From contig JBKHEF010000013.1 in assembly GCA_046540955.1 (NCBI GenBank), forward strand, positions 1,104-65,103: a stretch of DNA of 64,000 nt. The letters run 5' to 3'. Origin of the DNA: Wenzhouxiangella sp. Lineage in GTDB: Bacteria > Pseudomonadota > Gammaproteobacteria > Xanthomonadales > Wenzhouxiangellaceae. The translations under genes were made by a program, and so were the position numbers. The notes beneath the pieces were generated by a model that saw only the letters and a list, made by a program, of their open reading frames with translations, ran no database searches and was not told where the DNA came from. Shown here piece by piece: positions 24,448 through 56,767 of this stretch (positions are counted from its first letter, which is position 1; every line of letters starts with the position of its first letter).

Positions 24448-24600
24448 GTAACCAAGGAAATTTCCTACCAGAAATCATGATGTTTTCCTAATTTGATCAG
24501 CGGTAGTTAGCTGATGAAACCGTAAATGGAGCTACGCCAGACTTGGAAACACTCCGCGTCCACCGGGAGTACTTCTAACCATCAAATCAGGAGAAAAGTC

Positions 24601-33979: not shown

Positions 33980-33990
33980 CAACGCTATCA
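33977..33990. promoter_or_regulatory. LacI-family operator
   Basis: TGACAACGCTATCA; 13/14 identical to the site at 42947. Confidence 0.75.
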
Positions 33991-34114
33991 TTCTGGCTCA
34001 AGCTTGACCCACAAGCCACCAACCAAAGCACCCCCGAGATGGTCACAAGCAAGCTGCCAGCACTGCCCGGGAACCGGACACCGGCCGATCCGGCCGTGTT
34101 TGGAGTCTAAAGCC

Positions 34115-37822: not shown

Positions 37823-39139
37823 GTGATGGTTATGCCTGTTTTCTTGTTCTGGGCCGGGCTTGTTCTGATCAGTCTGGCCGGTGTGGCCCAGATGGCGCAG
37901 GCGGACCCGGTGCCGGTCGAGGTGGTCGGCAGCGAGTCCGGCTACCAGTTGTTGCGCGGCGGAGAACCTTACTCGGTGCGAGGTGCCGGTATGGTCGACG
38001 ATGACCTCGAGCGCTTCGTTGCCCGCGGTGGCAATTCGATCCGGACCTGGACCACGCGCTCGGAAGACACCGACATGCCGGCCCTGCTGGATCGGGCCGA
38101 TGAACTTGGCGTGACGGTCGCGCTGACCCTGCCGATGCAGCCGGAACGCTATGGCTTCGACTACGACGACGAAGCGGCCGTGGCCGCCCAGCTGGAGATG
38201 CTGCGCAATGAGGTGCTGCGCTACCGCGACCATCCGGCCGTACTGATGTGGATCATCGGCAACGAGCTCAACCACAGCTACACCAACCCGCGGGTCTGGG
38301 ATGCGGTCAATGATGTCGCCCGGATGATCAAGGAGCTTGACCCCCATCATCCGGCAACGACCGCCATTGCGGGCATACGCGACGAGGACATCCTGGAAAT
38401 TCTCGTGCGCGCGCCGGCGCTGGACTTTATCAGTTTCCAGGCCTATGGCCGGATCTTCGAGCTGCGCGAAACCCTGGCCCGGCTCGAATTCGAACAGCCC
38501 TTCATGATCACCGAGTGGGGCACGATCGGCTGGTGGGAGATGGAGAAGACCAGCTGGGGTGCACCGGTCGAGTTGAACAGTTCGGAAAAGGCTGATGTCT
38601 TCCTGCGCGCCTACCAGGACATCATGCTGCCGCTGGCCGATCAGTTACTGGGCACTTACGCCTTTTTCTGGGGCCAGAAGCAGGAACGTACGCCGACCTG
38701 GTTCGGCGTGCTGACCATGGACGGCGCGCAAACCGAGGCGGCCGACGTGCTCGAGTACATCTGGACCGGCCAGTGGCCGGCGCATCGCGTGGCTCGGGTC
38801 GAGCAGTTGCGGCTCGACGGCAAGAGCGCGCGCGACAACGTGATTGTGCAGGCCGGCCGCGACTACCCGGTCCACTTCGAGGTCAGCGGCGCGGACGAGC
38901 GGGCGCTGACCTATCGTTGGGAAATCAAGCCGGAAAGCGATGCCACCCAGGTTGGCGGTGATTACGAGGCCTATATTCCAAGCCTGGATCGCGCGCAGGT
39001 CTCGGGTAACCTCGCCAGCGGCCAGTTGCTGGTGGCCGAACCCGGCGCTTACCGCCTGTTTGCCTATGCCGAAGACGACCATGGCCGCGTTGCCCACGCC
39101 AACATCCCGCTGCTGGTCGAAGACGATCTCGATCAGTGA
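37823..39139 (+). CDS. Secreted clan GH-A TIM-barrel glycosidase (GH2-TIM-like, probably GH158 endo-beta-1,3-glucanase)
   Basis: Signal peptide, GGNSIRTW, WIIGNEL acid/base, ITEWG nucleophile, WGQKQERTPTW; the family assignment is inference. Confidence 0.75.
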   Translation: MMVMPVFLFWAGLVLISLAGVAQMAQADPVPVEVVGSESGYQLLRGGEPYSVRGAGMVDDDLERFVARGGNSIRTWTTRSEDTDMPALLDRADELGVTVALTLPMQPERYGFDYDDEAAVAAQLEMLRNEVLRYRDHPAVLMWIIGNELNHSYTNPRVWDAVNDVARMIKELDPHHPATTAIAGIRDEDILEILVRAPALDFISFQAYGRIFELRETLARLEFEQPFMITEWGTIGWWEMEKTSWGAPVELNSSEKADVFLRAYQDIMLPLADQLLGTYAFFWGQKQERTPTWFGVLTMDGAQTEAADVLEYIWTGQWPAHRVARVEQLRLDGKSARDNVIVQAGRDYPVHFEVSGADERALTYRWEIKPESDATQVGGDYEAYIPSLDRAQVSGNLASGQLLVAEPGAYRLFAYAEDDHGRVAHANIPLLVEDDLDQ

Positions 39140-39164: not shown

Positions 39165-40199
39165 CTAGCGCACTTCGGCTATCGGGCCCGTGGATCCGCG
39201 GATGCGCAGCGTCCCGGGTACGACGAAATGACCGGAGCTGTCATCGCCGGCGTGTTTGACCAGCATCAGTGCGGCCTGCTCGGCCATGGCCGCAAACGGC
39301 TGGCGAATGGTGGTCAGCGGCGGATGCACCTGCTCGGCCAGGGTGATATCGTCGCAGCCGGCGACCGACAACTGATCGGGAATGGCAATGCCGAGCGTGC
39401 ATGCTGCCCGCATCACGCCGACCGCCATGTCGTCGTTGGCGGCAAAGATCGCCGTCGGCCGGCGCTTGCGCTTGAGCAGTTCCAGGCCGGCCCGTTCGCC
39501 CGAGCCGAAGGAATTGTCGCCGCTGGCCACCAGTTCGGGCGAGAAGGCAAGGCCATTGCGTATCAGGCCATCCTGGTAACCAAGCAAACGCTGTCCGACC
39601 GCCTGGTGCTGCGGATGGCCGGAGATGAAGCCGATCCTGCGGTGGCCATGGGCAGCCAGGTGATCGACCATCTGGGCGCTGAATTCACGGTCGTTGGTGC
39701 TCACCACACCGTCGGCGGGACGCTTGAGGCCGGGCGATAGCCGGATCAGCGGCGTGCCGGTGGCCTTGATGGCGCGCACCACGGGCTGGGTGTTCGACAG
39801 GGGTGCCGCCAGCACGATTCCGGCCGGCCTGGCCCGGCGGATCAGCGCGGCGAGTTCGTGCCGGATGCCCTGGCTGCGATAGCTGCATGGATGGATCAGG
39901 AGTTCGTGGCCATGCGCGCGGCAGACCCGGAGCACACCCTCCTGAAGGCGGATGATATACCCGGCCGACGGCAGTTCGTAGGCACTGGGATCGTCGTAGA
40001 TCAGGCAGATCAGGTGCGCGCGGCGGCTGGCCAGGTCACGCGCTGACTGGTTGGGTGAGTAACCGAGTTCGGCGATCGCCGATTCGACCCGGGCCCGGGT
40101 CTGGTCGCGCACGCCGGGCTCGCGGTTGACCACCCGCGAAACCGTCTTGATGGAGACACCCGCCAGGCGGGCGACATCGGTAATGGTCGTGTTGGCCAT
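39165..40199 (-). CDS. LacI-family transcriptional regulator
   Basis: TITDVARLAGVSIKTVSRVVN HTH, AIFAANDDMA, PPLTTI. Confidence 0.96.
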   Translation of the reverse strand: MANTTITDVARLAGVSIKTVSRVVNREPGVRDQTRARVESAIAELGYSPNQSARDLASRRAHLICLIYDDPSAYELPSAGYIIRLQEGVLRVCRAHGHELLIHPCSYRSQGIRHELAALIRRARPAGIVLAAPLSNTQPVVRAIKATGTPLIRLSPGLKRPADGVVSTNDREFSAQMVDHLAAHGHRRIGFISGHPQHQAVGQRLLGYQDGLIRNGLAFSPELVASGDNSFGSGERAGLELLKRKRRPTAIFAANDDMAVGVMRAACTLGIAIPDQLSVAGCDDITLAEQVHPPLTTIRQPFAAMAEQAALMLVKHAGDDSSGHFVVPGTLRIRGSTGPIAEVR

Positions 40200-40288
40200 G
40201 GCGATGAATTCTACCGGCAGTTTCCGGATCGGCAAGCGGTTTGACCTGCAGCCTGTGGGATACTGCCCGTCACCACGGGAGGAATGCC

Positions 40289-41284
40289 ATGGAATATCGT
40301 CGCCTGGGAACATCCGGCCTGAAGGTTTCAGCCCTGTCGCTGGGCTCCTGGGTCACCTTCGGCAAGCAGGTTGATGCCAGGTCGGCCAGGGTGTTGCTGG
40401 AAACCGCCTGGCAGGCCGGGGTCAATTTCTTCGACAACGCCGAAGGCTACGAGGCCGGCGAGTCGGAAAGAATCATGGGCGCGGCGATCCGTGATCTCGG
40501 CCTGGCGCGCGATACCTTCATCATCTCCTCCAAGGTGTTCTGGGGGGGTGACCGGCCGACCCAGCTGGGGCTGTCGGCCAAACACGTGCGCGAAGCCTGC
40601 GACCAGGCGCTCAAGCGCTTGCAGGTTGACTACCTGGACCTGTTCTTCTGCCACCGGCCCGACATCGACACGCCCATCGAGGAAACCGTGCGCGCCATGC
40701 ACCAGCTGGTCATGCAGGGCAAGGTCCTCTACTGGGGCACCTCGGAGTGGAGTGCCCGGCAGATCACCGAGGCCCACGGGATCGCCCGCCAGGAGCACCT
40801 GACCCCGCCGGTCGTCGAGCAGCCGCAGTACAACCTGCTCAACCGGCAAAAAGTCGAAGCCGAGTATCGTCCGCTGTACGAACGCTTCGGCCTGGGTACC
40901 ACGATCTGGTCACCGCTGGCCTCGGGTCTGCTGACCGGCAAGTATCTTGACGGCATTCCCGAGGACTCGCGCCTGAACCTGCCTGGATACGAATGGCTGC
41001 GCGATCTTCTGCTCGATGAGGCCGGACAGGACCGGCTGGCCAGAATCGGCCGCCTGCAGCCGGTGGCCGAGGCGCTGGGGATCAGCCTGACCCACCTGGC
41101 GATCGCCTGGTGTCTGAAAAATCCGAACGTCAGCACTGTGATCCTCGGAGCCTCCCGCCTCTCCCAGCTGGAGGACAACCTGGCCGCACTCGATGCGGTC
41201 CCGAAACTGACCGATGCGGTCATGGCGCAAATCGACGAGATCATGGGCAACCGCCCGGCCGAACCGGAGCGGTTCGGACAGTAA
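40289..41284 (+). CDS. Aldo/keto reductase, Kv-beta-like
   Basis: SGLKVS.LSLGSWVTFG, FFDNAEGY, IISSKVFWG, FCHRPD, WSPLASGLLTGKY. Confidence 0.92.
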   Translation: MEYRRLGTSGLKVSALSLGSWVTFGKQVDARSARVLLETAWQAGVNFFDNAEGYEAGESERIMGAAIRDLGLARDTFIISSKVFWGGDRPTQLGLSAKHVREACDQALKRLQVDYLDLFFCHRPDIDTPIEETVRAMHQLVMQGKVLYWGTSEWSARQITEAHGIARQEHLTPPVVEQPQYNLLNRQKVEAEYRPLYERFGLGTTIWSPLASGLLTGKYLDGIPEDSRLNLPGYEWLRDLLLDEAGQDRLARIGRLQPVAEALGISLTHLAIAWCLKNPNVSTVILGASRLSQLEDNLAALDAVPKLTDAVMAQIDEIMGNRPAEPERFGQ

Positions 41285-41307: not shown

Positions 41308-42909
41308 TCAGCCGGTCAGCTGGTCTTCAAGTTCCTCGAGCGACCGGCGCTTGGTTTCCGGCACGATCTTCCAGATGAAGACCAGGCCGGCGGCGGCAAA
41401 CAGGCCATAGACCAGGAAGGTCAGGGCATTGCCGAGGGTGGCCAGCTCCCAGGGAAAGACCAGCTGAACCAGAAAGCTGATCCCGGAGTTGATGAAGCCG
41501 GCAAACGAGATCGCCAGGCCGCGCACCCTGAGTGGAAACAGCTCGGAAAACATCACCCACATCACAGGTCCGATGGAGACGGCAAAAGAGGCCACGAAAA
41601 ACAGGATGCCGAACAGGATCAGGCCCGGCCGGATGTCGATGGCCGCGGTGATCAGTTCGGCTTCGTGGGCGCGGGCCAGATCCGGGCTGAGCGTTTCGGC
41701 CAGGGCCTGCCGGAAGGCGACATCACTGCTGAAGGTGACTTCGTGCAAGCCAACCAGCTCCATCATGGTGTCGGGCGGTAAGGACAGATCGCGGAGCCTG
41801 TCCTCGGTCAGCGTGTAGCTGGCCGAGCCGAAACCCCAGGCCAGGACCATCATCGCCAGGGTGATGCCGGCCATGCCGCCCAGCAGCAATGGCCGGCGAC
41901 CGATCCTGTCGATGAGCAGCATGGCGATGACGGTAAAGGCCAGGTTGGTCAGGCCGACCAGCACCGCCTGCATGAACGATGCATCGGTGCCGATGCCCGA
42001 TTGCTCGAAGATCATCGGGGCATAGAAAAATACCGCGTTGATGCCGGTGATCTGCTGCAGCACGGCCAGGACGATGCCGGTGACCAGCACCAGGCGCAGT
42101 GCCGGATGAAAGATTTCGCGCAGGGCGACCTTTTCCCGGTGCTGGTCGCGTTCCAGGTTGCGCTGGATGTCGGCGATCTGTTTTGCAACTTCGACCGGCG
42201 CGAAGATGCGCTGAAGGGTTGCGGCTGCCTGATCATGCATGCCTTTCATGATCTGCCAGCGCGGGCTTTGCGGAACCCCCAGCAGGCCGCCAAAGAACAC
42301 CAGCGCCGGCAGGGTTTCAATGCCGAGCATCCAGCGCCAGGCATGGGCATCGAGCAGCAGGGCCTGGGCCCATGCGGCGTCCGACTGGGCAAACTGCAGA
42401 ATCAGGTAGTTGCTGAAGAAAGCCGCCGAGATGCCGATGACGATGTTGAGCTGGTTGAGGCTGACCAGCCGGCCACGACTGGCCGGTGGTGCGATCTCGG
42501 CGATATACATCGGCGCCACGATCAGCGAGGCACCAACACCCAGTCCGCCGATCATCCGGGCGATCACCAGGGTGACAAAGTCCGGCGCCAGAGCTGATCC
42601 GATGGCCGAGATGGCATAGAGGATCGCTGCGGCCTTGAGGACGCCGCGCCGACCGTAACGGTCACTCAAGGGACCGGCGAAGATCATCGCCAGGGTAGCG
42701 GTCAGGGTCAGCGAGCCCACGGCCCAGCCGATCTGCAGGCTTGAAAGACCAAACTCCGGGCCGATGAATCGAACCACTCCGGAGATCACTGATGCGTCGA
42801 AGCCCATCAGGAAGCCGCCGAGCGCCACGATGAGCGCGATCCGGACCACGTAACGCTGACTGCTGTTCATTGCTGGAACCTGGCTGGCCTGCACGCTTGA
42901 GGCCTGCAT
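41308..42909 (-). CDS. Sugar porter family MFS transporter
   Basis: GGFLMGFD, SDRYGRR, MYIAEIAP, QQITGINAVFFY, IDRIGRR, SELFP, VPETK; an alternative start is at 42870. Confidence 0.93.
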   Translation of the reverse strand: MQASSVQASQVPAMNSSQRYVVRIALIVALGGFLMGFDASVISGVVRFIGPEFGLSSLQIGWAVGSLTLTATLAMIFAGPLSDRYGRRGVLKAAAILYAISAIGSALAPDFVTLVIARMIGGLGVGASLIVAPMYIAEIAPPASRGRLVSLNQLNIVIGISAAFFSNYLILQFAQSDAAWAQALLLDAHAWRWMLGIETLPALVFFGGLLGVPQSPRWQIMKGMHDQAAATLQRIFAPVEVAKQIADIQRNLERDQHREKVALREIFHPALRLVLVTGIVLAVLQQITGINAVFFYAPMIFEQSGIGTDASFMQAVLVGLTNLAFTVIAMLLIDRIGRRPLLLGGMAGITLAMMVLAWGFGSASYTLTEDRLRDLSLPPDTMMELVGLHEVTFSSDVAFRQALAETLSPDLARAHEAELITAAIDIRPGLILFGILFFVASFAVSIGPVMWVMFSELFPLRVRGLAISFAGFINSGISFLVQLVFPWELATLGNALTFLVYGLFAAAGLVFIWKIVPETKRRSLEELEDQLTG

Positions 42910-42946
42910 GGTAAGACAAATCTGCCGGCCATGATGCCACCATGGT

Positions 42947-42995
42947 TGACAACGCTGTCAGCATTCTTTATAAAGCCCGGAAACAAGCGCTGTCA
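42947..42995. promoter_or_regulatory. Two LacI-family operators in the divergent sugar porter/TBDR promoter
   Basis: TGACAACGCTGTCA (42947-42960) and AACAAGCGCTGTCA (42982-42995). Confidence 0.8.
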
Positions 42996-43110
42996 AAAAA
43001 AGTTCAAGCACCGGTTTGTAGTGCGGCGCAACAACCTGGGCTTGCCATAAAAAGAACAGCTGCACACCCACAAACTGCTTCGATACTTTTGGCTGAGGAG
43101 GGAAGACCCC

Positions 43111-46100
43111 ATGGATTCAAACGTTATCCGCAAGACGCCTTTGGCTGCCGCAGTAGCCCTGGCGCTTGGTACCTGCATGCTTTCGCCGGCGCACGCGCGC
43201 CAGGATGAGGAGGCAGCCCAGGACGAAGAAACAACCGAACAATCCACAGAACAGACAACCGACTTCTTCACCGACGACCGTATTCAGGTTGTCGGCGTTC
43301 GCGGCAGCCTGATGCGGTCGATGGATCGCAAGCGTGATGCGGTCGGCCTGGTCGATGCCATCACCGCCGAGGACATCGGCAAGTTTCCCGACCAGAACCT
43401 GGCCGAAGCGCTCCAGCGTATTCCCGGCATTTCGATCAACCGGACCAACAACGAGGGCTCGCAGATCACCGTGCGCGGCTTCGGGCCGGAATTCAACCTG
43501 GTTACCCTCAACGGTCGCTCGATGCCGTCACAGGGTGGCCGTTCGTTTGATTTCGGCGACATTGCCTCCACCGGCATCAGTGCGGTCGAAGTCATCAAGA
43601 GCGGTCGGGCTGCGCTGCCCACCGGTGGCATCGGGGCAACGGTCAACATGATCACCGCCCGGCCGCTGGAAAACCCCGGTTTTCGCGGCGTGCTGGTCGG
43701 CAAGGCGGTCCATGAAACCTCCTCCAGCGATGGTGATCTGGGCAACCTCGATGAGTTCACCCCGGAGATTGCCGGCATCTACAGCAATACCTTCGCCGAC
43801 AACACCTTCGGTATTGCCCTGACCGGCTCCTATGAACAGCGCGACAACCGCGAAGAGTTCGCCGCGGTCAACAGCTGGGTGCCCAATTACGGTCTGGACG
43901 GCGGTACCGTCAACAACAACAACCAGCGCGATGACGGGGTCTGGTGGCATCCCCAGGATGCCGGTTACGGTTTTGCCGACATCTCGCGCACCCGTACCAA
44001 CGGCCAGCTGACCCTGCAGTGGCAGCCCAGCGACCGCATCCGCATGACCCTGGACTATACCTATTCGGAGCTTGAGTTCGAGAAGGACCAGAACAGCTTC
44101 GGGATCTGGTTTGCCAATCCCAATGTCTCGGCCACGATCAACGAACGCGGCACGGTCACCGACGTCACCCAGGTTGGTGGTGACTACGCGATCAATGTCG
44201 CCCGCGACAATACCGTCAAGGAAAACGACTCGCTCGGCTTCAATGTCAGTTTTCAGGCCACTGACAATCTGGAACTGATCTTCGACGCCCATGACTCCAG
44301 CTCTAACCTGAAAGGCGGTGGGCTGGGTGACGGCATCCCTGGCAGCTCGGCCAACCTGATCGTCGGCAACACCTTCTGTGACTGGTGTGGCACCGTGCCC
44401 GGAGCAGGACCGACGACTGCCACCATCGACGAGAAATTTGCTTCCTACTCGGCCGGGGGCATTCCGATCTGGGGTGCCACCTTCCGCGATCAGGAGACCG
44501 GGGAGATCCTGGACTTCCTGCGAAGAAGCGACATGGGTTCGCTGTTCGGCCAGGCTTTCGATGTCGACAACGTCAACGACATCCAGCAATTCCAGCTTGA
44601 TGGCATCTGGACCAACCCGGGGTCTGGTGCGATTTCGAGCGTCGAATTCGGCGCCAGCATGACCGAGCAGGAGTTCGTCAACCGCAACGCCTTCTCCGGC
44701 CTGCTACCCGGCGGCTTCTGGTTGACCTCGGCCCAGTACTGGCCCGACGAACTCTGGGACGAAGTAGGCTTTGGCGGCCTGCTGTCGGACTTCTCCAACA
44801 GCGGCAACTTCCCGCTGGATCGATTCTTCGTGACCGACTTCAACACCATGGTCGATATCTATGAATCGCTGGATTGCGTCTCCACCGGCGATCCGGTCTG
44901 CAACGATGTCTACTGGCCGTCGTGGGGACCGGAATTCCAGGATCCGTCCGGCGAGCGCGGCTTTTTCTGGCCCGGCCCGCTGGGCAATGCCAGCGGTGGC
45001 GGGGTTGAAGAAGAGATTACGGCGGCCTATTTCCAGGTCAATATGCAAGACCGGATCGCCGGGCTGCCATTCAATGCCCGGGTCGGTCTTCGGATCGAAG
45101 ACACCGAGACCAAGTCATCCGGCGACGAAGTGCCGGCCCAGGCCGTGGTCTGGGTGGGGGGTGATGAGTTCGTGACCGAATTCGGCCCGCCGACCTTCGT
45201 CACCGAGACCAGCTCGAATACCGAGTTCCTGCCGAGCCTGGATTTTGACCTGACCTTCCGGCATGACCTGATCTCGCGCTTCTCCTACAGCCGGACCCTG
45301 GCCCGCCCGCCGATCGGCGCGCTCAGCCCGGTGCGTTCGTTCGTCGGCAATCCCAACCCGCAAAACCGCGAGGCCAGCTCGGGCAATCCGGACCTGGTGC
45401 CGTACGTCTCCGACAATTTCGACCTGTCGCTGGAGTGGTACTACGCACCGGGCAGTTATGCCTCGGTCGCCTACTTCCGCAAGCATGTCGATAATTTCCT
45501 GGTCGGCACCACGGTGCGCGAAACCTTTGAAGGCCTGCTTGATCCGTTCCGCGGCGCCCAGGCCGAACTGGCCCGGGAACAGTTGGCCGCCGAGGGCATT
45601 CCGCTGAGCAACGCCAATATCTTTGCCCGCATCAATGAGAACCTCGGGGTACCCGCGACCACGCCGGTCCGGGCCCAGCCGGGTGATCCGCTGATCGAGT
45701 GGAACGTCTCGACCACCGATAATGCCGAGCAGGGCCGCATCTGGGGCTGGGAGTTCCAGGTCCAGCACATGTTCGCCGACACGGGCTTTGGCGTGCAGGC
45801 CAACGCCACCCTGGTAACCGGCGATGTCAAGGTTGATCGTAACGCGGTCGACCGTCAGTTCGCGCTGCCGGGACTCAGTGACTCGTACAACCTGATCGGC
45901 TTTTACGAAAACGAGCACATCTCGGCGCGAATCGCCTGGAACTGGCGCGATGAGTTCCTGTCCGGCTTCGACCAGTTCGACTCGCCGATCTTTGTCGAGG
46001 ACTATGGCCAGTTCGACATCAACCTGTCGTGGTTTGCCACCGAGAATCTGACCGTCTTCCTCGAGGGCCTCAATGTGACCGAGGAAACCCAGCGGGTCTA

Positions 46101-46179
46101 CGTGCGCTATCCCGAGCAGTTGGTGCGTGGCAACCAGTATGGGGCGCGCTACAATCTCGGGGCACGATGGAGATTCTGA
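43111..46179 (+). CDS. TonB-dependent receptor, glycan (CUT-locus) type
   Basis: DAITAEDIGKFPDQNLAEALQRIPG, VRGFGP, GNPDLVPY..DNFD, C-terminal WRF. Confidence 0.95.
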   Translation: MDSNVIRKTPLAAAVALALGTCMLSPAHARQDEEAAQDEETTEQSTEQTTDFFTDDRIQVVGVRGSLMRSMDRKRDAVGLVDAITAEDIGKFPDQNLAEALQRIPGISINRTNNEGSQITVRGFGPEFNLVTLNGRSMPSQGGRSFDFGDIASTGISAVEVIKSGRAALPTGGIGATVNMITARPLENPGFRGVLVGKAVHETSSSDGDLGNLDEFTPEIAGIYSNTFADNTFGIALTGSYEQRDNREEFAAVNSWVPNYGLDGGTVNNNNQRDDGVWWHPQDAGYGFADISRTRTNGQLTLQWQPSDRIRMTLDYTYSELEFEKDQNSFGIWFANPNVSATINERGTVTDVTQVGGDYAINVARDNTVKENDSLGFNVSFQATDNLELIFDAHDSSSNLKGGGLGDGIPGSSANLIVGNTFCDWCGTVPGAGPTTATIDEKFASYSAGGIPIWGATFRDQETGEILDFLRRSDMGSLFGQAFDVDNVNDIQQFQLDGIWTNPGSGAISSVEFGASMTEQEFVNRNAFSGLLPGGFWLTSAQYWPDELWDEVGFGGLLSDFSNSGNFPLDRFFVTDFNTMVDIYESLDCVSTGDPVCNDVYWPSWGPEFQDPSGERGFFWPGPLGNASGGGVEEEITAAYFQVNMQDRIAGLPFNARVGLRIEDTETKSSGDEVPAQAVVWVGGDEFVTEFGPPTFVTETSSNTEFLPSLDFDLTFRHDLISRFSYSRTLARPPIGALSPVRSFVGNPNPQNREASSGNPDLVPYVSDNFDLSLEWYYAPGSYASVAYFRKHVDNFLVGTTVRETFEGLLDPFRGAQAELAREQLAAEGIPLSNANIFARINENLGVPATTPVRAQPGDPLIEWNVSTTDNAEQGRIWGWEFQVQHMFADTGFGVQANATLVTGDVKVDRNAVDRQFALPGLSDSYNLIGFYENEHISARIAWNWRDEFLSGFDQFDSPIFVEDYGQFDINLSWFATENLTVFLEGLNVTEETQRVYVRYPEQLVRGNQYGARYNLGARWRF

Positions 46180-46201
46180 CCCCCGCCGGCGATCGCTGAT
46201 C

Positions 46202-46233
46202 ACAAGCCGCTGGCAACAGCGGCTTGTTTCTTT
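46202..46233 (+). terminator. Internal terminator after TBDR
   Basis: ACAAGCCGCTG-GCAA-CAGCGGCTTGT then TTCTTT. Confidence 0.75.
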
Positions 46234-46241
46234 GAGATGAC

Positions 46242-47822
46242 ATGACCGACCAGCCCATCAGCAATATCGTCATCGTCGGCGGCGGCAGCGCGGGATGGAT
46301 CACCGCCGGCCTGCTGGCCAGCGCATATCCCCGTTCCGGACCCGGTGCGGTCGCAGTGACCGTGATCGAGTCGCCCGATGTCAAGACCATTGGCGTGGGC
46401 GAGGGCACCTGGCCAACCATGCGGGCCACGCTGCGCCGGATCGGCCTGGGCGAACGAGAGTTTCTCCAGACCTGCTCGGCCTCGCTCAAGCAGGGCACGC
46501 GCTTTTGCGGCTGGGTCTCCGGGGCAGACGACGATGTCTATTACCACCCCTTTACCGTGCCCGCCGGTTACCCGGGCAATGGCCTGCTGGCGTGGTGGCA
46601 ACAGCAGGGTGGTCGGATGCGGTTTGCCGATGCAGTCACCCCCCAGGGCAGGGTCTGCGATCGCGGTCTGGCACCGAAACTGGCCGCTACCCCTGATTAC
46701 GCGCATGTCCTCAATTACGGCTATCACCTCGATGCCGGCAAGTTCGCCGACCTGCTCAAGACCCACTGCATTGACAGGCTCCAGGTGCGCCACCTGGTCG
46801 ATCACGTCACCGGCATAGACGGCGCGCCCGATCAGGATATCCGCGCCCTCAATCTGGCCAACAGTGGTCCGCTGGCGGCTGACCTGTTTATCGACTGCAC
46901 CGGCCAGTCCAGCCTGCTGCTGGGCCGGCACTATGGCATCGAACTGATCAGCCAGGATCATGTCCTGTTCAACGATCGTGCCCTGGCCGTGCAGGTGCCG
47001 TATGCCCGGCCGGGCAGTCCGGTCGAGTCGCAGACCAATTCCACCGCCCAGGCGGCCGGCTGGGTCTGGGACATCGGCCTGAGTTCGCGCCGCGGCATCG
47101 GCTATGTCTATTCCAGCCGCCACTGCGACGATGACCAGGCCGAACAGACCCTGCGCCAATACCTGGCCCGGACGAGTGCCCTCGACCCGGCTTCGGTCGC
47201 GCCGCGCAAGCTTGCTTTCACACCCGGTTACCGGGCGCGCTTCTGGCATCGCAACTGTGTGGCGGTGGGCATGTCGGCCGGGTTCATCGAGCCGCTGGAA
47301 GCCAGCGCGCTGGTCATGATTGAGCTGGCCGCCGCTGCCATTACCGACGAGTTGCCGGCTACCCGGGCAACGATGGACACCGTCGCGCGGCGATTCAACA
47401 CCCGCTTTGGCGAGCGCTGGGAGCGGATCATCGATTTTCTCAAGCTCCATTACGTCTTGAGCCGCCGGGAAGACAGCGATTACTGGATCGACAACCGCCG
47501 GGCCGAGTCCATGCCCGAGCACCTGGCCGAGGCCATCGAGTTGTGGCGAGACCGCTTTCCGGGCCCGAGCGATTTTGCCCGCGTCGATGAAATCTTTTCT
47601 GCCGCCAGCTACCAGTACGTGCTCTATGGCATGGGCTTTGAAACCCGGCCGCGCCCACGCGCCGGGCAGGCGGTCGAGATCGAGCAGGGGCGCGCATTGC
47701 ATCTGGAGATCGAACGCCAGAGCCGCCGCCTGCTGGCCCAGCTGCCCGACAACCGCGGGTATTTGAGCGAGATCGCCGGCCCGGCATCCGCGCCCTCCGG
47801 CCCGGTGGTGGCCGGTATCTGA
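46242..47822 (+). CDS. Tryptophan-halogenase family flavin-dependent enzyme 1
   Basis: GGGSAG, GVGEGT, SLKQG catalytic Lys, WVWDIG, GFIEPLEAS. Confidence 0.92.
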   Translation: MTDQPISNIVIVGGGSAGWITAGLLASAYPRSGPGAVAVTVIESPDVKTIGVGEGTWPTMRATLRRIGLGEREFLQTCSASLKQGTRFCGWVSGADDDVYYHPFTVPAGYPGNGLLAWWQQQGGRMRFADAVTPQGRVCDRGLAPKLAATPDYAHVLNYGYHLDAGKFADLLKTHCIDRLQVRHLVDHVTGIDGAPDQDIRALNLANSGPLAADLFIDCTGQSSLLLGRHYGIELISQDHVLFNDRALAVQVPYARPGSPVESQTNSTAQAAGWVWDIGLSSRRGIGYVYSSRHCDDDQAEQTLRQYLARTSALDPASVAPRKLAFTPGYRARFWHRNCVAVGMSAGFIEPLEASALVMIELAAAAITDELPATRATMDTVARRFNTRFGERWERIIDFLKLHYVLSRREDSDYWIDNRRAESMPEHLAEAIELWRDRFPGPSDFARVDEIFSAASYQYVLYGMGFETRPRPRAGQAVEIEQGRALHLEIERQSRRLLAQLPDNRGYLSEIAGPASAPSGPVVAGI

Positions 47823-47849
47823 CCATGCTGACCAGGGATTGACCACGAC

Positions 47850-48590
47850 ATGCCGCGTCACGAACCGCTCGACAATATCCGGCACAAGGATCTGCGCATC
47901 GACCGTCGCCCCGGCCCCGGCCGCGGTTTCGACGTGCAGCTGGCGCGTGTGTTTCCGGTTGAACTGGGGGCATTGCAGGCTGAGTATCCGCTGTTCCTGA
48001 CCCGCAATGCCGCCAGCGGGCACTTCGACCTGGTTGCCCTGCTGGGCCTGGAAGCCGGGGAAAATCTGTATCTTGGGGAAGGGGAGTGGCTGGCCCGGAT
48101 CCAGCCGCTGAGCATCGAGCGCCAGCCCTTCCTGATCGGGTTCCAGCCCGATCAGGATCCAGGCGGTGCTGCGCCGATGCCGGTGATCCATATCGACATG
48201 GACCATCCGGCGGTCAGCGATTCGGTCGGCGAGCCGGTTTTTCTGCCGCATGGCGGCGACAGCCCGCTGCTTGAGCGGATGAATACCGTGCTGGCCACGA
48301 TCCATGCCGGCCACCAGGCCAGCGAGAGTTTCTCGCGCCTGCTGGTCGGGCTGGACCTGGTCGAATCGCTCGATCTCGAAGTGGAACTCAACGACGGCAG
48401 CCGGCGTGGTCTGACCGGGCTCTACACGATCAACGAACAACGCCTGGCCGGACTCGATGGCGACAGCCTGGCGACCCTGCATCGACAGGGTTGCCTGCAG
48501 CACGTCTACATGTTGCTGGCTTCCATGCCGCAGCTGGCGGTGCTGATCGAGCGCAAGAACCGGAAGCTGGGCGCCCCGGCGCCGGCCTGA
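47850..48590 (+). CDS. SapC family protein
   Basis: HKDLRI, LQAEYPLF, ALLGLEAGENL, RQPFLIG, GLYTINE. Confidence 0.88.
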   Translation: MPRHEPLDNIRHKDLRIDRRPGPGRGFDVQLARVFPVELGALQAEYPLFLTRNAASGHFDLVALLGLEAGENLYLGEGEWLARIQPLSIERQPFLIGFQPDQDPGGAAPMPVIHIDMDHPAVSDSVGEPVFLPHGGDSPLLERMNTVLATIHAGHQASESFSRLLVGLDLVESLDLEVELNDGSRRGLTGLYTINEQRLAGLDGDSLATLHRQGCLQHVYMLLASMPQLAVLIERKNRKLGAPAPA

Positions 48591-48594
48591 GCCC

Positions 48595-49608
48595 ATGCTG
48601 CCGGTTCCCCAGCCCATCGAGGAAGCACAAGGCATCAGCGCGGCCAGGGTGCATGCCCACGTGGCCGGACTGGAGCGGCCGCTGGTGTTGCGCGGCCTCA
48701 TCGCCGACTGGCCGCTGGTCACCGCCGCGCGGGCCTCGATCCGGCAGGCTGCTGATTACCTGCTCAGGTTCGACACCGGCCAGCCGGTGACCGCCTTCAT
48801 CGGCCAGCCCGGGGACCAGGGCCGGATCTTCTACAACGACGATCTGACTGACACCAACTTTACTCCACAGCGGGTCGGCCTGCCCCAGGTTCTCGAACAG
48901 CTCGAAGCGCAGGCCGACAACCCCGGCGCAGCGACCCTGTACGTCGGCTCCTCGGCCATTGACCTGTGCCTGCCCGGCTTGAGTGCCGACAACAGTCTGC
49001 CGCCGGGACGCTTTCGGGCCTCGGTCCGGATCTGGCTGGGCAATCGCACCCGGGTGGCCGCGCACTACGATGCGCTTGAGAACATCGCCTGCGTGTGCGG
49101 CGGCCGGCGCCGCTTCACCCTGTTTCCACCCGACCAGCTGGCCAATCTGTACGTCGGGCCGATGGAGCTGACCCCGGCCGGTCAGCAGATCAGCCTGGTC
49201 GACTTTGAAAACCCGGACCTGGAGAGTCATCCACGCTTTGCCCAGGCGCTGGAGCACGCTGTTACCGCCACCCTGGGGCCGGGTGATGCCGTCTACATCC
49301 CGCCGATGTGGTGGCACCACGTCGAGGGGCTGGAGCCGTTCAATATCCTGATCAACCACTGGTGGCGCGAGGTGCCGGACTACATGGGCGCGCCCAACGA
49401 TGCCCTGCTGCACGCCATCTTGAACATCCGTGACCTGCCGCCCGCCCAGCGCCAGGCCTGGCAGGGGCTGTTCGAGCACTACGTGTTCCATGCCGACGAG
49501 CAGACGGCCGAACACATCCCGCCGCACAGCCGCGGCGTGCTCGGCGAGCTCGACGACACCATCGCCCGGCGCCTGCGCAGCCTGCTGCGCAACAAGCTCA
49601 ACCGCTGA
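48595..49608 (+). CDS. JmjC/Cupin_8 2OG-Fe(II) oxygenase (Pass1-like)
   Basis: IWLGN, HYD...RRRFTLFPP, PGDAVYIPPMWWHHV facial triad. Confidence 0.88.
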   Translation: MLPVPQPIEEAQGISAARVHAHVAGLERPLVLRGLIADWPLVTAARASIRQAADYLLRFDTGQPVTAFIGQPGDQGRIFYNDDLTDTNFTPQRVGLPQVLEQLEAQADNPGAATLYVGSSAIDLCLPGLSADNSLPPGRFRASVRIWLGNRTRVAAHYDALENIACVCGGRRRFTLFPPDQLANLYVGPMELTPAGQQISLVDFENPDLESHPRFAQALEHAVTATLGPGDAVYIPPMWWHHVEGLEPFNILINHWWREVPDYMGAPNDALLHAILNIRDLPPAQRQAWQGLFEHYVFHADEQTAEHIPPHSRGVLGELDDTIARRLRSLLRNKLNR

Positions 49609-49626
49609 ACCACAAGGATTCCGGAC

Positions 49627-51140
49627 ATGGCCGCAAGCGACATTGACAGTTTCGGGCGGATCATCATCGTCGGCGGCGGCACGGCCGGCTGGATGGCGGC
49701 CGCGGCCCTGGCCAAGACCTTCGGCACAAGCAAGCACATCGAGCTGATCGAATCCGACGAGATCGGCACGGTCGGGGTGGGCGAGGCGACCATTCCGGCG
49801 ATCAGGAACTTTCACCTGCTGCTGGGCCTGGATGAGGCGGAGTTCCTCGAGGCGGTCAACGGCACCTTCAAACTGGGTATCGAGTTCGAGAACTGGGGCC
49901 GGGTCGGCGAGCGCTATTTCCACCCCTTCGGCCCGCCGGGCGCGGATGGCTGGGCGGCGCAGTTTCATCATTACTGGCTCAAGAGCCGGGCCCTTGGCGA
50001 GACCGGCAGCCTGAATGATTTCAGCTTCGAGGCCACCCTGGCCCGGGCCGGGCGCTTCGGGATGAATGGTGAGCCCCGCCCGAACTATGCCTATCATTTC
50101 GACGCCGGCCTGTATGCCCGGCTGCTGCGCCGCTACAGCGAAGCGCGCGGTGTCCGCCGCATCGAGGGCAAGGTAGTCGACGTCAAGCTGCACGGCGAAA
50201 CCGGCCTGATCGAGGCGGTGACGCTGGCCTCCGGCCAGGCCATCGCCGGCGATTTCTTTATCGACTGCAGCGGCTTTCGCGGCCTGCTCATCGAGCAGAC
50301 CCTGGCCACCGGCTGGGAGGACTGGTCGCAGTGGCTGCGCTCGGACTCGGCCGTGGCGGTCCAGAGTGAGTCGGTCGCAGCCCCCATCCCGTATACCCGC
50401 TCGACCGCGCGCAGTGCCGGCTGGCAGTGGAAGATTCCCCTCCAGCACCGGGTCGGCAACGGCATCGTGTTCAGCTCGCGTTACCTGAGCGAAGACCAGG
50501 CGACCAGGCTGCTGCTCGACAATATCGACGGCAAGCCGATCACCGAACCGCGCTGCATCCGCTTTCGCACCGGCCGACGGCTCTTGCAGTGGAACCAGAA
50601 CTGCCTGGCCCTGGGCCTGGCCAGCGGCTTTCTCGAGCCGCTGGAATCAACCAGCATCCACATGATCCAGAACAGCCTGATCCGCTTCATCAAGCTGTTC
50701 CCGGCCGGCCGGATCGAGCCGACCGAGGTCGACCAGTTCAACCGCGATGTCCAGCTCGAAGCCGAGTACATCCGCGACTTCATCATCCTGCACTACCACG
50801 TCAACCAGCGCACCGATTCGGACTTCTGGGTCGATTGCCGCAACATGTCCGTGCCCGACACGCTCGCTCACAAGATCGGACTGTTCGCCAGCAACGCACG
50901 CGTGTTCCGCGACCAGTACGAACTGTTTGCCGAACAATCCTGGGTGGCGGTCATGACCGGGCAGGGCATCGAGCCGGCCGGTTATCACCCCATCGTCAAC
51001 AACCTGGCGGATGCCGAACTGAAGCAACTGATGACCGAAACCCGCTCGCGCATCGCCGCGCATGTCCGGCGGCAACCGACCCACGGCGACTACCTGGCCG
51101 GTCTGAAGCCCGCCCGGGCGCGAACCGCCGAGGCGGCCCG

Positions 51141-51144
<4 letters not shown>
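49627..51144 (+). CDS. Tryptophan-halogenase family flavin-dependent enzyme 2
   Basis: GGGTAG, GVGEATIP, TFKLG catalytic Lys, WQWKIP, GFLEPLESTS. Confidence 0.93.
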
Positions 51145-52595
<1,451 letters not shown>

Positions 52596-52609
52596 GGCGG
52601 GGGGCGCAC

Positions 52610-53308
52610 ATGCAATGGACTGAATGCCCCGATCGTGCCGCCCTGGTCGATGCTGTCAGCCAGCGCATCGCGGTGCGCCTGAGCGCCGCCCTCGAGGCCG
52701 GGCCGGAAGCCTGCATCGCGCTGGCCGGTGGCGGCACGCCGATGCCGATCTATGCCCGCCTGGCCGGGCTGGATCTGGACTGGGCGCGGGTGGTTGCCGT
52801 GGCCACCGACGAGCGTTGGGTAGCGGCCGATCATCCGGCCAGCAATGCCAGCCAGATCCGGCGGCAATTTGCCGGCACCGGTCTGCGTGTGGCCGGTCTG
52901 GTGCCCGAGCAGGCCGGCGGCGAGGCCAGCGTGGAGGCGGCCGAACAGACCCTGGCCAGGCTGGGTGATATCTTTGATCTGGCGCTTGTTGGCATGGGCG
53001 GTGATGGACATTTTGCTTCGCTGTTTCCGCATGCCCCGGCGCTTGCAACCGGCCTGGATCCTGAGGCGATCGAAAGCGCCCTGGTGGTGATGCCCGACCC
53101 ACTGCCGCCCGAGGCCCCGTTTGCCCGCGTGACCCTGACCCTGGCCCGGCTGCTGGCCAGCCGCAGCCTGATGCTGGTCATCACCGGCGAGGCCAAGTAC
53201 AAGGTTCTGCGGCAAGCGCTGCAGCCCGATGCCGATCCGCACAAGCTGCCGATCGCCGCCCTGCTGCGCTCGGCCGGTGACCGGCTGGAAATCTTCTGGA
53301 GTCCATGA
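52610..53308 (+). CDS. pgl: 6-phosphogluconolactonase
   Basis: ALAGGGTP, TDERWV...SN, GMGGDGHFASLFP. Confidence 0.93.
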   Translation: MQWTECPDRAALVDAVSQRIAVRLSAALEAGPEACIALAGGGTPMPIYARLAGLDLDWARVVAVATDERWVAADHPASNASQIRRQFAGTGLRVAGLVPEQAGGEASVEAAEQTLARLGDIFDLALVGMGGDGHFASLFPHAPALATGLDPEAIESALVVMPDPLPPEAPFARVTLTLARLLASRSLMLVITGEAKYKVLRQALQPDADPHKLPIAALLRSAGDRLEIFWSP

Positions 53309-55150
53309 ATGACGATGCTCGACCCGACCATTGAACAAGTCACCGAACGCATCGCCCGCCGCAGCGCCAGGCTGCGCCAGGACTACCTCGACCGGATCGA
53401 CCGGGCGCGCGATGCCGGTACCGCGCGGAGCCGGATCAGCTGCGGCAACCTGGCCCATGCCTTCGCCGCCTCGGGCGCTGACAAGCCCGTGCTCAAGAGC
53501 CTGCAGCGGCCCAATATCGGCATCGTGTCGGCCTACAACGACATGCTCTCGGCCCATCAGCCGCTGGAGAAGTTCCCGGGCCTGATCAAGCTGGCCGCCC
53601 AGGCCAAAGGCTGTACGGCGCAGTTTGCCGGTGGCGTGCCGGCGATGTGCGACGGGGTCACCCAGGGCCAGGTCGGGATGGAGCTGTCGCTGTTCTCGCG
53701 CGATGTCATCGCCCAGGCCACCGCCGTGGCCCTGTCGCACAACACCTTCGATGCAGCCGTGATGCTGGGCGTGTGCGACAAGATCGTGCCGGGTCTGCTG
53801 ATTGGCGCGCTGGCCTTTGGCCACCTGCCGGTGATCCTGGTCCCGGCCGGGCCGATGCCCTCGGGGCTGCCCAACAGCGAAAAGGCGCGTATCCGCAAGC
53901 TGCACGCCGAAGGCAAGGCCAGCCGCGAGGAATTGCTGGAAGCCGAGGCCGCCTCTTATCATTCGCCCGGGACCTGCACCTTCTACGGCACCGCCAATTC
54001 CAACCAGATGCTGATGGAAGTGATGGGCCTGCACATGCCCGGTGCGGCGTTCATCAACCCCAACACCCCGCTTAGAGACGCCCTGACCCTGGCCGCGGCC
54101 GAGCGGGCCTGCGACATCACCGCCGCCGGCGAGGCTTATACACCGATTGGCCGAACCGTGGATGAGAAAGCCATCGTCAACGCCATGGTCGGGCTGGCGG
54201 CTACGGGGGGGTCGACCAACCACGCCATCCACCTGGTGGCGATCGCCCGGGCGGCGGGCCTTCTCATTGACTGGAACGACCTGGACGCGATTTCCCGGGC
54301 CACACCGCTGCTGGCCCGGATTTATCCCAACGGCCAGGCCGACGTCAATCACTTCCATGCTGCCGGCGGCCTGGCGCTGGTGATGCGCGAGCTGCTTGAT
54401 GCCGGCCTGCTGCACCCGGACATCCGCTGCGTGCACGGCGGCGATCTGTACGCCCAGGCACGCGAGCCGGTGCTTGACGGCGACCGGCTGGACTGGACGC
54501 CGGCCGTTGCCGCCTCGCTCGATACCGATATCGTCCGGCCCGTCTCCGAACCGTTTGCGCCTGAAGGCGGCATTCGCCTGCTCCAGGGTCGACTGGGCCG
54601 GGCCATTGTCAAGATCTCGGCGGTGGCACCACAGCATCGCCGGATCGAGGCCCCGGCGCGGATCTTCGACTCGCAGGATAAACTGCTGCAAGCCTTTGCT
54701 CGTGGTGACCTCGAAGGCGATTTCGTCGCCGTGCTCCGCGGCCAGGGACCCAAGGCCAACGGCATGCCGGAATTGCACAAGCTCACGCCCACCTTGCAGG
54801 TGCTGCAGGACCGTGGCCAGCGCGTGGCCCTGTTGACCGACGGGCGCATGTCGGGCGCTTCCGGCACCGTGCTGGCGGCCATTCACCTGGTGCCCGAAGC
54901 GGCCAGCGGCGGCCTGATCGGCCGGCTGGTCGACGGCGATCCGGTGATCATCGACGCCGACCGCGGCATGCTCGACACCGGGCTGGACGGCGCCGAACTG
55001 GCCGGCCGCCCGGCCTGGCGGCCCGACCTGTCCGAATCGGCCTGGGGTTGCGGCCGCGAGCTGTTTGCCACCGCCCGCGCGGTAGTCGGTGATGCCGAAA
55101 GCGGAGCCAGTACTTTGTTCGGTGATCCGGAGTCAATGAGCGATGGCTGA
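53309..55150 (+). CDS. edd: Phosphogluconate dehydratase
   Basis: [55 protein letters not shown]. Confidence 0.97.
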
Positions 55151-56144
55151 TGATGTGGTGCTGGTGGGCGATATCGGCGGCACCAACGCCCGCTTCACCC
55201 TGGCCGAAAGCGGACTTGAGCGTCCGCAGTTGCGCGCTCTGGAGATTCTGGCGACCAACGACTTCGCCAGCCTGCAGGCGGCGGCCGAATACTACCTGGG
55301 GCAGGTTGCAGTCAGGCCGCGCCGGGCCGCGCTGGCTGTGGCCTGTCCGGTGCGAAGCGACGATATCTGCCTGACCAACCGCGCCTGGTCGTTCAATCGA
55401 CTCCAGCTGGCAGCCGCGCTGGGTCTTGACGAGTTGCGTGTGATCAATGATTTCGGGGCCGCCGCCCGGGGGATCGCCGCGCTCGGCCCGGATGAATACG
55501 AGCTGCTCTGCGGCCGGGCGCGGACCGGGCTCAGCGATCCGGTCAGCGTGATCGGGCCCGGCACCGGCATGGGAGTGGCCTTGCTGGTGCGCAACCCGGA
55601 CCAGTGCTGGCAGGTCATCGAGACCGAGGGCGGCCACATCAGCCTGGCCACGCTGGGGCCGGAAGAGCGCCGGATTCGTGATTGGCTGGCCGTCCGCCAC
55701 GGCCGGGTCTCGATCGAGCGGGTCTTGTCCGGGCCCGGACTGTCCGAGGTGCACGCCGCCTTCTCTGGCCTGCCTCCGGCAAGGCAAAGCACGCCGGATT
55801 CGGCCCTGCAGGCACCCGCGGATGTTGTCGCCGCTGCTTTGAATGGCACCGACCGCGCCGCAACCTCGACCCTGGCGCTGTTCTGCGCAACCCTGGGCAG
55901 CGTGGCCGGCGATGCCGCCCTGTTCCACGGCGCGCGCACCGTCGCCATTGCCGGCGGGATCGTGCCGCGCTTCATCCCGTTCCTTAAATCCAGTGCCTTC
56001 CGCCAGCGCTTTCTTGACAAGGGCCGGTTTGCCGCCTACCTGGAGGAGATCAACGTCGTGGTCGTCACCCATCCCGAGCCCGGACTGCTGGGCGCGGCCA
56101 TCCAGCTGCTGGCGCCGCAGGCGCCTGGTGAGCTGCCGGCATGA
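55143..56144 (+). CDS. glk: Glucokinase
   Basis: [38 protein letters not shown]. Confidence 0.95.
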
Positions 56145-56767
56145 ATCTGTTCAAGACGGGCCAGTGCCCGGTCATACCGGTGGTTCGGATCGAGTCAGCC
56201 GAACGGGCGGTGGGGCTTGCCCGCACGCTGGTCGACGCCGGTCTGTCCACCATCGAGATTACCCTGCGAACGCCGGCGGCCTGCGCGGCCATCGCCCGGA
56301 TCCGGGCCGAGGTGCCCGAAGCGCTGGTCGGGGCCGGCACGGTGCTCAACGGCGATGATCTTGACCGCGTGAGCGAGGCCGGGGCCAGGTTCGCGATCGC
56401 GCCGGGGTGCAGTGATGCCCTCTATCAGGCGGCGGCCAATACATCGCTGCCGTTGCTGCCCGGCGTGGCCACGGCCTCGGAGATCATGCGCGGGCTGGAC
56501 CATGGCCACGAAATCTTCAAGTTCTTCCCGGCCCAGTCCGCCGGTGGTATCTCACTGCTCAAGGCCTGGGCAGGGCCGTTTCCGAAGGTGCGCTTTGTCC
56601 CTACCGGCGGCATCACCCCGGCCAACGCGCCCGATTATCTTCGCCTGGGCAACGTGCTGGCCGTGGGCGGGTCGTGGATGGTGCCGGAAGAGGCTATCGC
56701 TGTCGGCGACTGGGCGCAGATTGCGGCTCTGGCCCAAGCGTGCGCGGCCCTGGCCCGGGACGTCTGA
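56141..56767 (+). CDS. eda: KDPG/KHG aldolase
   Basis: EITLRT, GAGTV, PG.AT.SE, FKFFPA, PTGGI. Confidence 0.96.
   Translation: MNLFKTGQCPVIPVVRIESAERAVGLARTLVDAGLSTIEITLRTPAACAAIARIRAEVPEALVGAGTVLNGDDLDRVSEAGARFAIAPGCSDALYQAAANTSLPLLPGVATASEIMRGLDHGHEIFKFFPAQSAGGISLLKAWAGPFPKVRFVPTGGITPANAPDYLRLGNVLAVGGSWMVPEEAIAVGDWAQIAALAQACAALARDV

Follow-up and report, generated by a model that had tools for sequence, protein, structure and literature searches.

We analyzed a 64,000-nt stretch (hereafter the window) of contig JBKHEF010000013.1 from a Wenzhouxiangella sp. draft genome (GenBank assembly GCA_046540955.1), in which a gene for an oligosaccharide-type TonB-dependent receptor is followed by four intact plus-strand genes at positions 46242-51144. 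These four genes, subsequently designated the cassette, encode a flavin-dependent halogenase (Hal1), a SapC-family protein, an FIH-like JmjC/Cupin_8 oxygenase and a second halogenase (Hal2). Pfam assignments and translations bore out what a preliminary description, made from the sequence alone, had stated about gene content, coordinates, reading frames and motifs. Receptor, Hal1, SapC, JmjC hydroxylase and Hal2 form a five-gene unit with fixed order, which is situated within a LacI-type beta-1,3-glucan regulon. Comparisons with related loci provided three main results: halogenases of this type are almost always receptor accessories, a conserved candidate leaky terminator follows the receptor gene, and SapC proteins are mostly encoded together with giant secreted proteins. 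Tentatively, and with low confidence, we favor the reading that the four cytoplasmic proteins assist the exported protein of the adjacent gene as an accessory module, and that they act on protein rather than in sugar or aglycone chemistry.

Linkage of the cassette to TonB receptors

As a gene set, the cassette is not new but has been known since 2010. It belongs to a neighborhood described by Iyer, Abhiman, de Souza and Aravind (Nucleic Acids Res 2010; PMC2938197), in which a JOR/JmjC gene is accompanied by one to three tryptophan halogenase genes, a TonB-class receptor gene and SapC. All four families are present here, i.e. a JmjC protein with the HxD...H motif, two intact PF04820 genes, SapC in the same block and an adjacent TonB-class receptor. 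The likeness extends to the halogenases, which keep the Rossmann motif and the catalytic lysine, to the oxygenase, which falls into the FIH/TYW5-like Cupin_8 group, and to the gammaproteobacterial host. Some relatives also possess an additional dioxygenase-like gene: at locus L067 (positions 7593-8324) a 243-residue DUF6445 protein with an H-F-D ... H pattern (E 1.5e-65) is encoded between the receptor terminator and Hal1, and loci L069 and L075 carry an extra gene in the same gap. The DUF6445 gene is probably the optional second dioxygenase of Iyer et al. In contrast to the published neighborhood, the present copy is embedded in a beta-1,3-glucan locus (GH158, GH3, LacI) and appears to be translationally coupled to the genes zwf-pgl-edd-glk-eda.

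The receptor is a clear member of the TIGR01782 subfamily. It reached 621 bits with this model, the cut-off being 310 bits, aligned over model positions 2-868 and comprises plug, barrel and signal peptide, while siderophore-receptor models scored no higher than 40 bits. To quantify the association of halogenases with such receptors, 12 genomes were surveyed, and a full-length PF04820 gene was counted as linked when a TIGR01782 receptor gene preceded it on the same strand at a distance of up to 6 kb. Linkage was observed for 42 of the 49 full-length PF04820 genes, 26 of which lie within 400 bp of the receptor gene. Conversely, 31 out of 77 TIGR01782 receptors carry a downstream halogenase, and about 20 of the 22 SapC genes in these genomes adjoin a receptor of the subfamily. 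Control searches with SapC, PF04820 and TIGR01782 were all positive in Caulobacter vibrioides. In 80 loci gathered by a scan with the SapC profile, the gene order receptor, Hal1, SapC, Cupin_8, Hal2 is nearly invariant wherever the contig allows its assessment. The preliminary description had regarded the cassette as a recurrent companion of sugar-type TonB receptors, and these surveys agree with this view, as does the work of Iyer et al. (2010).

A phylogenetic tree of 125 receptors (79 linked, 46 unlinked) revealed that the linked state is clustered but polyphyletic: it requires at least nine changes, as compared to a mean of 39 upon shuffling of the labels. Linked receptors span at least six separate clades, and the receptor of the window belongs to a clade of 53 members, all of which are accompanied by a cassette. 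In other clades of the subfamily, a lone Hal2-type halogenase gene was observed within roughly 100 bp downstream of the receptor gene and without SapC or JmjC genes (L107, L114, L115, L122, L123, L124, L130, L131 and L091). Halogenases are thus associated with receptors of the TIGR01782 subfamily in general and not with one particular sugar.

Between the receptor gene and Hal1, a terminator-like hairpin begins 22 nt downstream of the receptor stop codon and leaves 14 nt between the end of its stem and the Hal1 start codon. The same kind of hairpin is found at 65 of 68 receptor-to-halogenase junctions, and its stem exhibits compensatory changes across these junctions (GCCGCUG/CAGCGGC, GCCGCC/GGCGGC, GCCCAGC/GCUGGGC). 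The genome is poor in strong canonical intrinsic terminators: perfect 9-bp G+C-rich hairpins followed by a T-run occur six times in 2.84 Mb, and the hairpin behind the receptor gene is one of them. Because of the short distance to the Hal1 start codon no promoter fits in front of this gene. Therefore, the cassette and the downstream Entner-Doudoroff genes would have to be fed by read-through or by promoters located inside coding sequence. A scan of positions 42800-51300 against Rfam returned nothing meaningful.

SapC and the three enzymes of the cassette

SapC had no sequence match in the PDB, and beyond PF07277 no Pfam family reached E ≤ 1. Its AlphaFold2 model is confident (pLDDT 92, pTM 0.87), and a Foldseek search with this model found no PDB fold match at E ≤ 0.001. 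The family extends well beyond halogenase loci. SapC is present in 38 of 301 evenly drawn Gammaproteobacteria, and among the 37 SapC-bearing genomes other than that of the window only nine possess any PF04820 halogenase. We took 20 SapC loci (L141-L160) from genomes lacking halogenases. In about 15 of them SapC directly adjoins a gene for a repeat protein of 1300-2800 residues, and the surroundings point to different export routes: a TPS secretion domain together with a FecR-domain protein near SapC in L142, a layout shared by L154 and L160, a ShlB/POTRA-type TpsB transporter in L144, TolC and HlyD in L143, and a SecA-like ATPase in L147. DUF5649 repeats occur near SapC in L141 and L150. The SapC family is thus located beside giant secreted proteins whatever the export route. 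Two further features of these 20 loci were observed. A gene for a small FecR-domain protein is often placed between SapC and the giant protein, and the giants of L152 and L153 share the C-terminal motif W.WFD...TGD[IL]T[LM]PR..R.Y. A search for hairpins between giant genes and SapC yielded inconsistent results.

A polar core composed of H12, E38, Y46, N72, W80, R91, D116 and S225 is conserved alike in SapC proteins of cassettes and in those encoded next to giant proteins. We also considered SapC itself as a substrate for halogenation. This idea was rejected, as SapC proteins from genomes without any halogenase conserve W80 and the polar core to the same degree. The suggestion of the preliminary description that SapC could be an adaptor gains support from the genomic context, i.e. 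from its occurrence mostly without halogenases and beside giant exported proteins and secretion genes. A similar arrangement is known from the sapCDEF locus of Campylobacter fetus, the namesake of PF07277 (cited in PMC2938197), in which the SapC member adjoins the secretion genes of a large surface protein. Unlike the cassette, this locus contains no halogenase, oxygenase or TonB receptor.

Both halogenases possess the catalytic motifs of their family, the conservation of which was measured in 66-79 orthologues, as it was for the oxygenase. Hal2 carries all four marks of flavin-dependent halogenases: the GxGxxG motif (GGGTAGW), W266xW268xIP, the catalytic lysine K82 and the glutamate E340, the last two being counterparts of K79 in PrnA/RebH and E346 in PrnA and invariant among the orthologues. 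In Hal1, the corresponding elements are GGGSAGW, K83, W274xW276xIG and E353. K83, E353, W274 and W276 are likewise invariant, and the WxWxIG variant, which replaces WxWxIP, is kept in 88% of the orthologues. The two enzymes are of different types. Hal1 aligned over its full length with the structures 9LTB (6.6e-163) and 2PYX (1.5e-157). These 'tryptophan halogenase' structures, to which 9LU2 also belongs, have no published function that we could find in the searchable literature, and enzymes of the Hal1 type carry WxWDIG as opposed to WxWxIP. Hal2 is of the Xcc4156/BrvH type, with end-to-end alignments to Xcc4156 (6Y1W, 3.3e-174) and BrvH (6FRL, 1.1e-152) and a further match to 9LUQ. Its alignments to RebH and Thal end around residue 423, whereas those to BrvH and Xcc4156, which are devoid of the C-terminal loop contacting the amino and carboxyl groups of free tryptophan, reach the end of the protein.

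Hal2 has the same motifs as Xcc4156 and BrvH, and halogenating activity, which requires FADH2, O2 and halide, has been demonstrated for those relatives only. According to the BrvH and Xcc4156 papers, free tryptophan is rejected by both enzymes, bromination of indole is slow, and indole derivatives are also brominated in vitro. The two enzymes have solvent-exposed substrate sites similar to that of MibH, for which tryptophan is a substrate only as part of its peptide. The authors question indole as the native substrate and propose larger or peptide substrates. Neither a partner reductase nor a natural product was reported in these papers, and the TonB receptor context was not mentioned.

In agreement with the preliminary description, which had noted neither a flavin reductase nor biosynthetic genes nearby, a PF01613 flavin reductase (RebF/PrnF/HpaC-type) was not found anywhere in the 94%-complete genome. 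Such a reductase was found in 13 of 14 control genomes. General FMN_red and Fre-like candidates are encoded elsewhere in the genome. Among the window genes scanned (~18.6-61 kb) there were no NRPS, PKS, tryptophan-pathway or exporter genes. The scaffold enzymes, partner flavin reductase and exporter of a secondary-metabolite cluster were therefore absent from this region.

The oxygenase retains the iron-binding triad H157, D159 and H241 as well as R172 in all orthologues. R172 aligns with the lysine of FIH that binds the C5 carboxylate of 2-oxoglutarate (2OG). The best sequence match in the PDB is FIH itself (E 1.7e-20), and JMJD5 and JMJD7 were also retrieved. The HxD...H facial triad and the double-stranded beta-helix core are common to the oxygenase and these protein hydroxylases. 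It differs from FIH in that only the catalytic core (residues ~140-262) aligns and in that Arg172 takes the place of the 2OG-binding lysine.

All four genes of the cassette are under purifying selection. In comparison to the three nearest relatives, dN/dS values were 0.17-0.25 for Hal1, 0.06-0.20 for Hal2 and 0.06-0.25 over the four genes, and the neighboring transporter and repressor genes fell into the same range.

The beta-1,3-glucan regulon and its surroundings

Table 1. Features of the window around the cassette. Positions refer to the window.
Feature	Position	Strand	Evidence
309-residue open reading frame	24526-25455		no Pfam match
Second TonB-dependent receptor, 1142 residues	25534-28962
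CHASE-PAS-GAF-PAS-GGDEF-EAL signaling protein, 1546 residues	29087-33727	-
Candidate LacI-type operator TGACAACGCTATCA, just upstream of the MFS_2-GH3-GH158 operon	33977-33990		one mismatch to TGACAACGCTGTCA
MFS_2 (GPH-type) glycoside transporter	34004-35593	+	Pfam
GH3 beta-glucosidase	35609-37813	+	Pfam; BglX-like PDB structures, ~1e-165
GH158 endo-beta-1,3-glucanase homologue, 438-residue TIM-barrel hydrolase	37823-39139	+	PDB 9ORO, 2.4e-83; 6PAL, 5e-59
LacI-family repressor	39165-40313	-	PF00356 and Peripla_BP_3
Sugar-porter MFS transporter (XylE/GlcP-like), divergent from the receptor gene	41308-42909	-	TIGR00879, 342 bits
Sigma-70-like promoter TTGACA-N17-TATAAA, facing the receptor gene	42946-42974	+	read from sequence
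Perfect palindrome TGACAACGCTGTCA, candidate LacI operator overlapping the receptor promoter	42947-42960		pattern search, no mismatches
TonB-dependent receptor, TonB-Xanth-Caul (oligosaccharide-type)	43111-46179	+	plug and barrel; TIGR01782; signal peptide
Terminator-like hairpin (11-bp stem with 7 G-C pairs, GCAA loop, then TTCTTTG)	46202-46234	+	folding z-score -3.2
Hal1, flavin-dependent halogenase	46242-47822	+	PF04820, E 1.5e-112
SapC-family protein	47850-48590	+	PF07277, E 2.2e-56
Cupin_8/JmjC Fe(II)/2OG oxygenase, FIH-like ('Pass1-related')	48595-49608	+	PF13621, E 9.5e-69
Hal2, flavin-dependent halogenase	49627-51144	+	PF04820, E 4.5e-186
Hal2 stop/zwf start overlap (ATGA)	51141-51144	+
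Entner-Doudoroff operon zwf, pgl, edd, glk, eda	51141-56767	+	family profile matches

The genes of the cassette are densely packed, with spacers of 27, 4 and 18 nt from Hal1 through SapC and Cupin_8 to Hal2 (Table 1). None of the four encoded proteins has a signal peptide; one is present at the N-terminus of the receptor. The preliminary description had placed the cassette directly behind a LacI-controlled glycan receptor, and the presence of a LacI-type sugar regulon could be substantiated. A perfect palindrome, the candidate LacI operator, overlaps the receptor promoter and a copy with one mismatch precedes the MFS_2-GH3-GH158 genes, which makes a LacI-controlled beta-glucan locus a sound inference. 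In the pattern search for this palindrome, shuffled sequence contained far fewer matches and reached the observed count in none of 100 shuffles. The gene content, i.e. GH158 (a family of endo-beta-1,3-glucanases), GH3, MFS_2, a sugar porter, LacI and the two operator-like palindromes, predicts specificity for laminarin-type beta-1,3-glucan. The flanks of orthologous cassettes are rich in comparable functions: GH16 accounted for 10 of 100 sampled neighbors, LacI for nine, GH3 for seven and GH1 for four, and sugar transporters occurred as well. Therefore, the receptor clade appears to be a beta-glucan clade.

At its 3' end, the stop codon of Hal2 overlaps the start codon of zwf in the sequence ATGA, and this overlap is retained in L002, L003 and L005. 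As zwf, pgl, edd, glk and eda are each present in a single copy, the cassette is, judged by the overlapping codons, translationally coupled to the only Entner-Doudoroff operon of the genome. This coupling is a local peculiarity, since the operon follows the cassette only in the closest relatives.

The window has a G+C content of ~65%, and nearly all genes between 34 and 57 kb are on the plus strand. Several further observations concern the surroundings. A plus-strand aldo-keto reductase gene lies between the LacI and sugar-porter genes, and its longest open reading frame overlaps that of LacI on the opposite strand by 73 bp (40241-40313); the start codon of one or both genes is probably located further inside the reading frame. 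The gene for the CHASE-PAS-GAF-PAS-GGDEF-EAL protein is situated directly upstream of the beta-glucan operons. The second TonB-dependent receptor, which is preceded by the 309-residue open reading frame, fell outside the TIGR01782 subfamily in the genome search. The assembly comprises 2.84 Mb in 71 contigs and contains one cassette and three receptors of the TIGR01782 subfamily. Its closest relatives are Wenzhouxiangella metagenome-assembled genomes, and the receptors of the window and of L001 share 94% identity.

Candidate substrates of the cassette

How might the four proteins act? All SapC contexts have in common that an adjacent gene encodes a large exported beta-rich protein, and this is why we favor, tentatively, a module that serves such cargo. 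SapC would be a cargo-linked factor, which may bind a client protein prior to export, be it the receptor precursor or some other unfolded protein. The two O2-dependent halogenases may then attach bromine or chlorine to exposed aromatic side chains, most probably those of tryptophan, and the FIH-like oxygenase may hydroxylate a side chain, with reduced flavin provided by general reductases. The hairpin downstream of the receptor gene could keep the amount of the enzymes well below that of the receptor. The receptor precursor would be the most obvious candidate for the protein substrate. Chemistry on protein is suggested by the nearest solved relatives of the oxygenase, which are protein hydroxylases, and by the open, MibH-like sites of BrvH and Xcc4156.

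Cytoplasmic tailoring of a protein before its export has precedents. HMW1C, a member of GT41, glycosylates the two-partner-secretion adhesin HMW1, and HlyC acylates HlyA. In both cases cargo and tailoring enzyme are encoded in one operon, and SapC is likewise found beside cargo of the TpsA and type I secretion types. The likeness is one of logic and not of homology, and no TonB receptor is known to be modified. In its most specific version, the proposal holds that SapC is a general cytoplasmic 'cargo factor' for TonB receptors, for giants of two-partner and type I secretion and for S-layer proteins, and that in the cassette it recruits the enzymes to the unfolded receptor precursor, resulting in halogenated tryptophan and hydroxylated residues before export. 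We judge this version unlikely to hold as it stands.

Several observations weigh against a module serving the receptor protein. When the 79 linked receptors were compared to the 46 unlinked ones, no alignment column was common to all seven linked groups and yet rare in the unlinked ones, and the columns discriminating best mark only the largest clade. The N-terminal linker between signal peptide and TonB box is equal in length and charge in linked and unlinked receptors, and the receptor revealed no motif by which it might be recognized or modified. As 60% of the receptors in the subfamily lack a halogenase, any modification must be dispensable for the fold itself. The searchable literature contains no report of a TonB receptor being halogenated or hydroxylated after translation, and the sole activity measured for the relatives is on small indoles. 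The ATGA overlap with zwf indicates joint transcription of the cassette and genes of central sugar catabolism, which would also fit a metabolic role. More generally, neighborhood evidence cannot separate a cassette that serves the receptor protein from one that is merely co-expressed with it. Genetic or physiological work on the cassette could not be found in the searchable literature, and a search for fitness, transcriptome or biochemical data tying its genes to receptors led only to Iyer et al. (2010) and the BrvH and Xcc4156 papers.

The principal alternative is small-molecule chemistry in the cytoplasm, by which an imported aglycone or phenolic compound or endogenous indole would be detoxified or converted to a halogenated signal or antifouling metabolite in response to the sugar, with SapC as an unrecognized enzyme or carrier. 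We regard this as possible, albeit doubtful. BrvH and Xcc4156 do brominate indole and its derivatives in vitro, and the cassette is, as far as the operators and gene overlap tell, controlled by sugar and co-transcribed with glucose catabolism, which would provide NAD(P)H and 2OG. In SapC, the polar core with H12, E38, Y46, N72, W80, R91 and D116 would also suit an enzyme, as already suggested by Iyer et al. (PMC2938197). However, the activity with indole is very low and its relevance is doubted by the authors themselves, the same SapC core occurs beside giant exoproteins in loci without oxygenase or halogenase, and no transport system dedicated to an aromatic compound, be it for import or export, is present. 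Moreover, halogenases that follow receptors of many clades do not fit a single class of substrate. The preliminary description had advocated a specific form of this idea, in which aglycones, phenolics or modified sugars imported along with the glycan are oxidized or halogenated. This form is disfavored by the many receptor clades involved, at least six, and by the finding that SapC mostly resides beside giants in genomes without halogenases. The absence of signal peptides, the protein substrates of the related hydroxylases and the open MibH-like sites of BrvH and Xcc4156, both poor indole brominases, speak against it as well.

Alternatively, the target could be another protein, e.g. SapC itself, a component of TonB-ExbBD or Sec, or a regulator, thereby subjecting biogenesis or activity of the receptor to control by O2, 2OG or halide. 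The three enzymes all depend on O2, and in eukaryotes enzymes of the FIH type serve as oxygen sensors. The lack of a receptor-specific motif would be explained, and SapC offers an invariant tryptophan (W80) as well as invariant asparagine residues. On the other hand, the equal conservation of W80 and the polar core without halogenase implies that these residues are not kept as halogenation sites, and TonB, ExbBD or Sec genes are not linked to the cassette in any of the 80 loci. We hold a target of this kind to be quite improbable. Hardly any weight can be given to the original proposal of Iyer et al., who predicted an amino-acid-derived, halogenated and hydroxylated siderophore-like metabolite, imported by the adjacent receptor, and considered SapC an unrecognized enzyme (PMC2938197). 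In favor of this published prediction, halogenases and JmjC oxygenases are indeed found in pyoverdine-type clusters. Yet, it misfits the receptor, which is of the oligosaccharide type and barely recognized by siderophore-receptor models, and it misfits the regulon with its LacI-type operator, GH158, GH3 and Entner-Doudoroff genes. GH16, GH3, GH1, LacI and sugar transporters prevail in the flanks of the orthologues, and NRPS, NIS-synthetase, exporter or Fur-type features are absent. We rejected the siderophore reading for its conflict with receptor subfamily and sugar regulon, by which it is already largely contradicted.

The cassette ranks among the most widespread unexplained gene sets of aerobic Alpha- and Gammaproteobacteria, and BrvH and Xcc4156, for which structures have been solved, are studied as biocatalysts. 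As a specimen the present copy adds little, because it derives from the draft genome of a Wenzhouxiangella-like bacterium, but the comparisons made from it narrow the hypotheses. New or re-verified here are the hairpin at 65 of 68 junctions, the linkage of 42 of 49 halogenase genes, the polyphyly of linked receptors, the lack of a PDB fold match for SapC and its co-occurrence with halogenases in just nine of 37 genomes. If the receptor or another exported protein is indeed the target, the cassette would represent a new kind of bacterial protein modification and would provide enzyme engineers with the real substrate of these halogenases. Should SapC recruit the enzymes to the receptor precursor, this would be a previously unseen modification of outer membrane proteins, made prior to their export.

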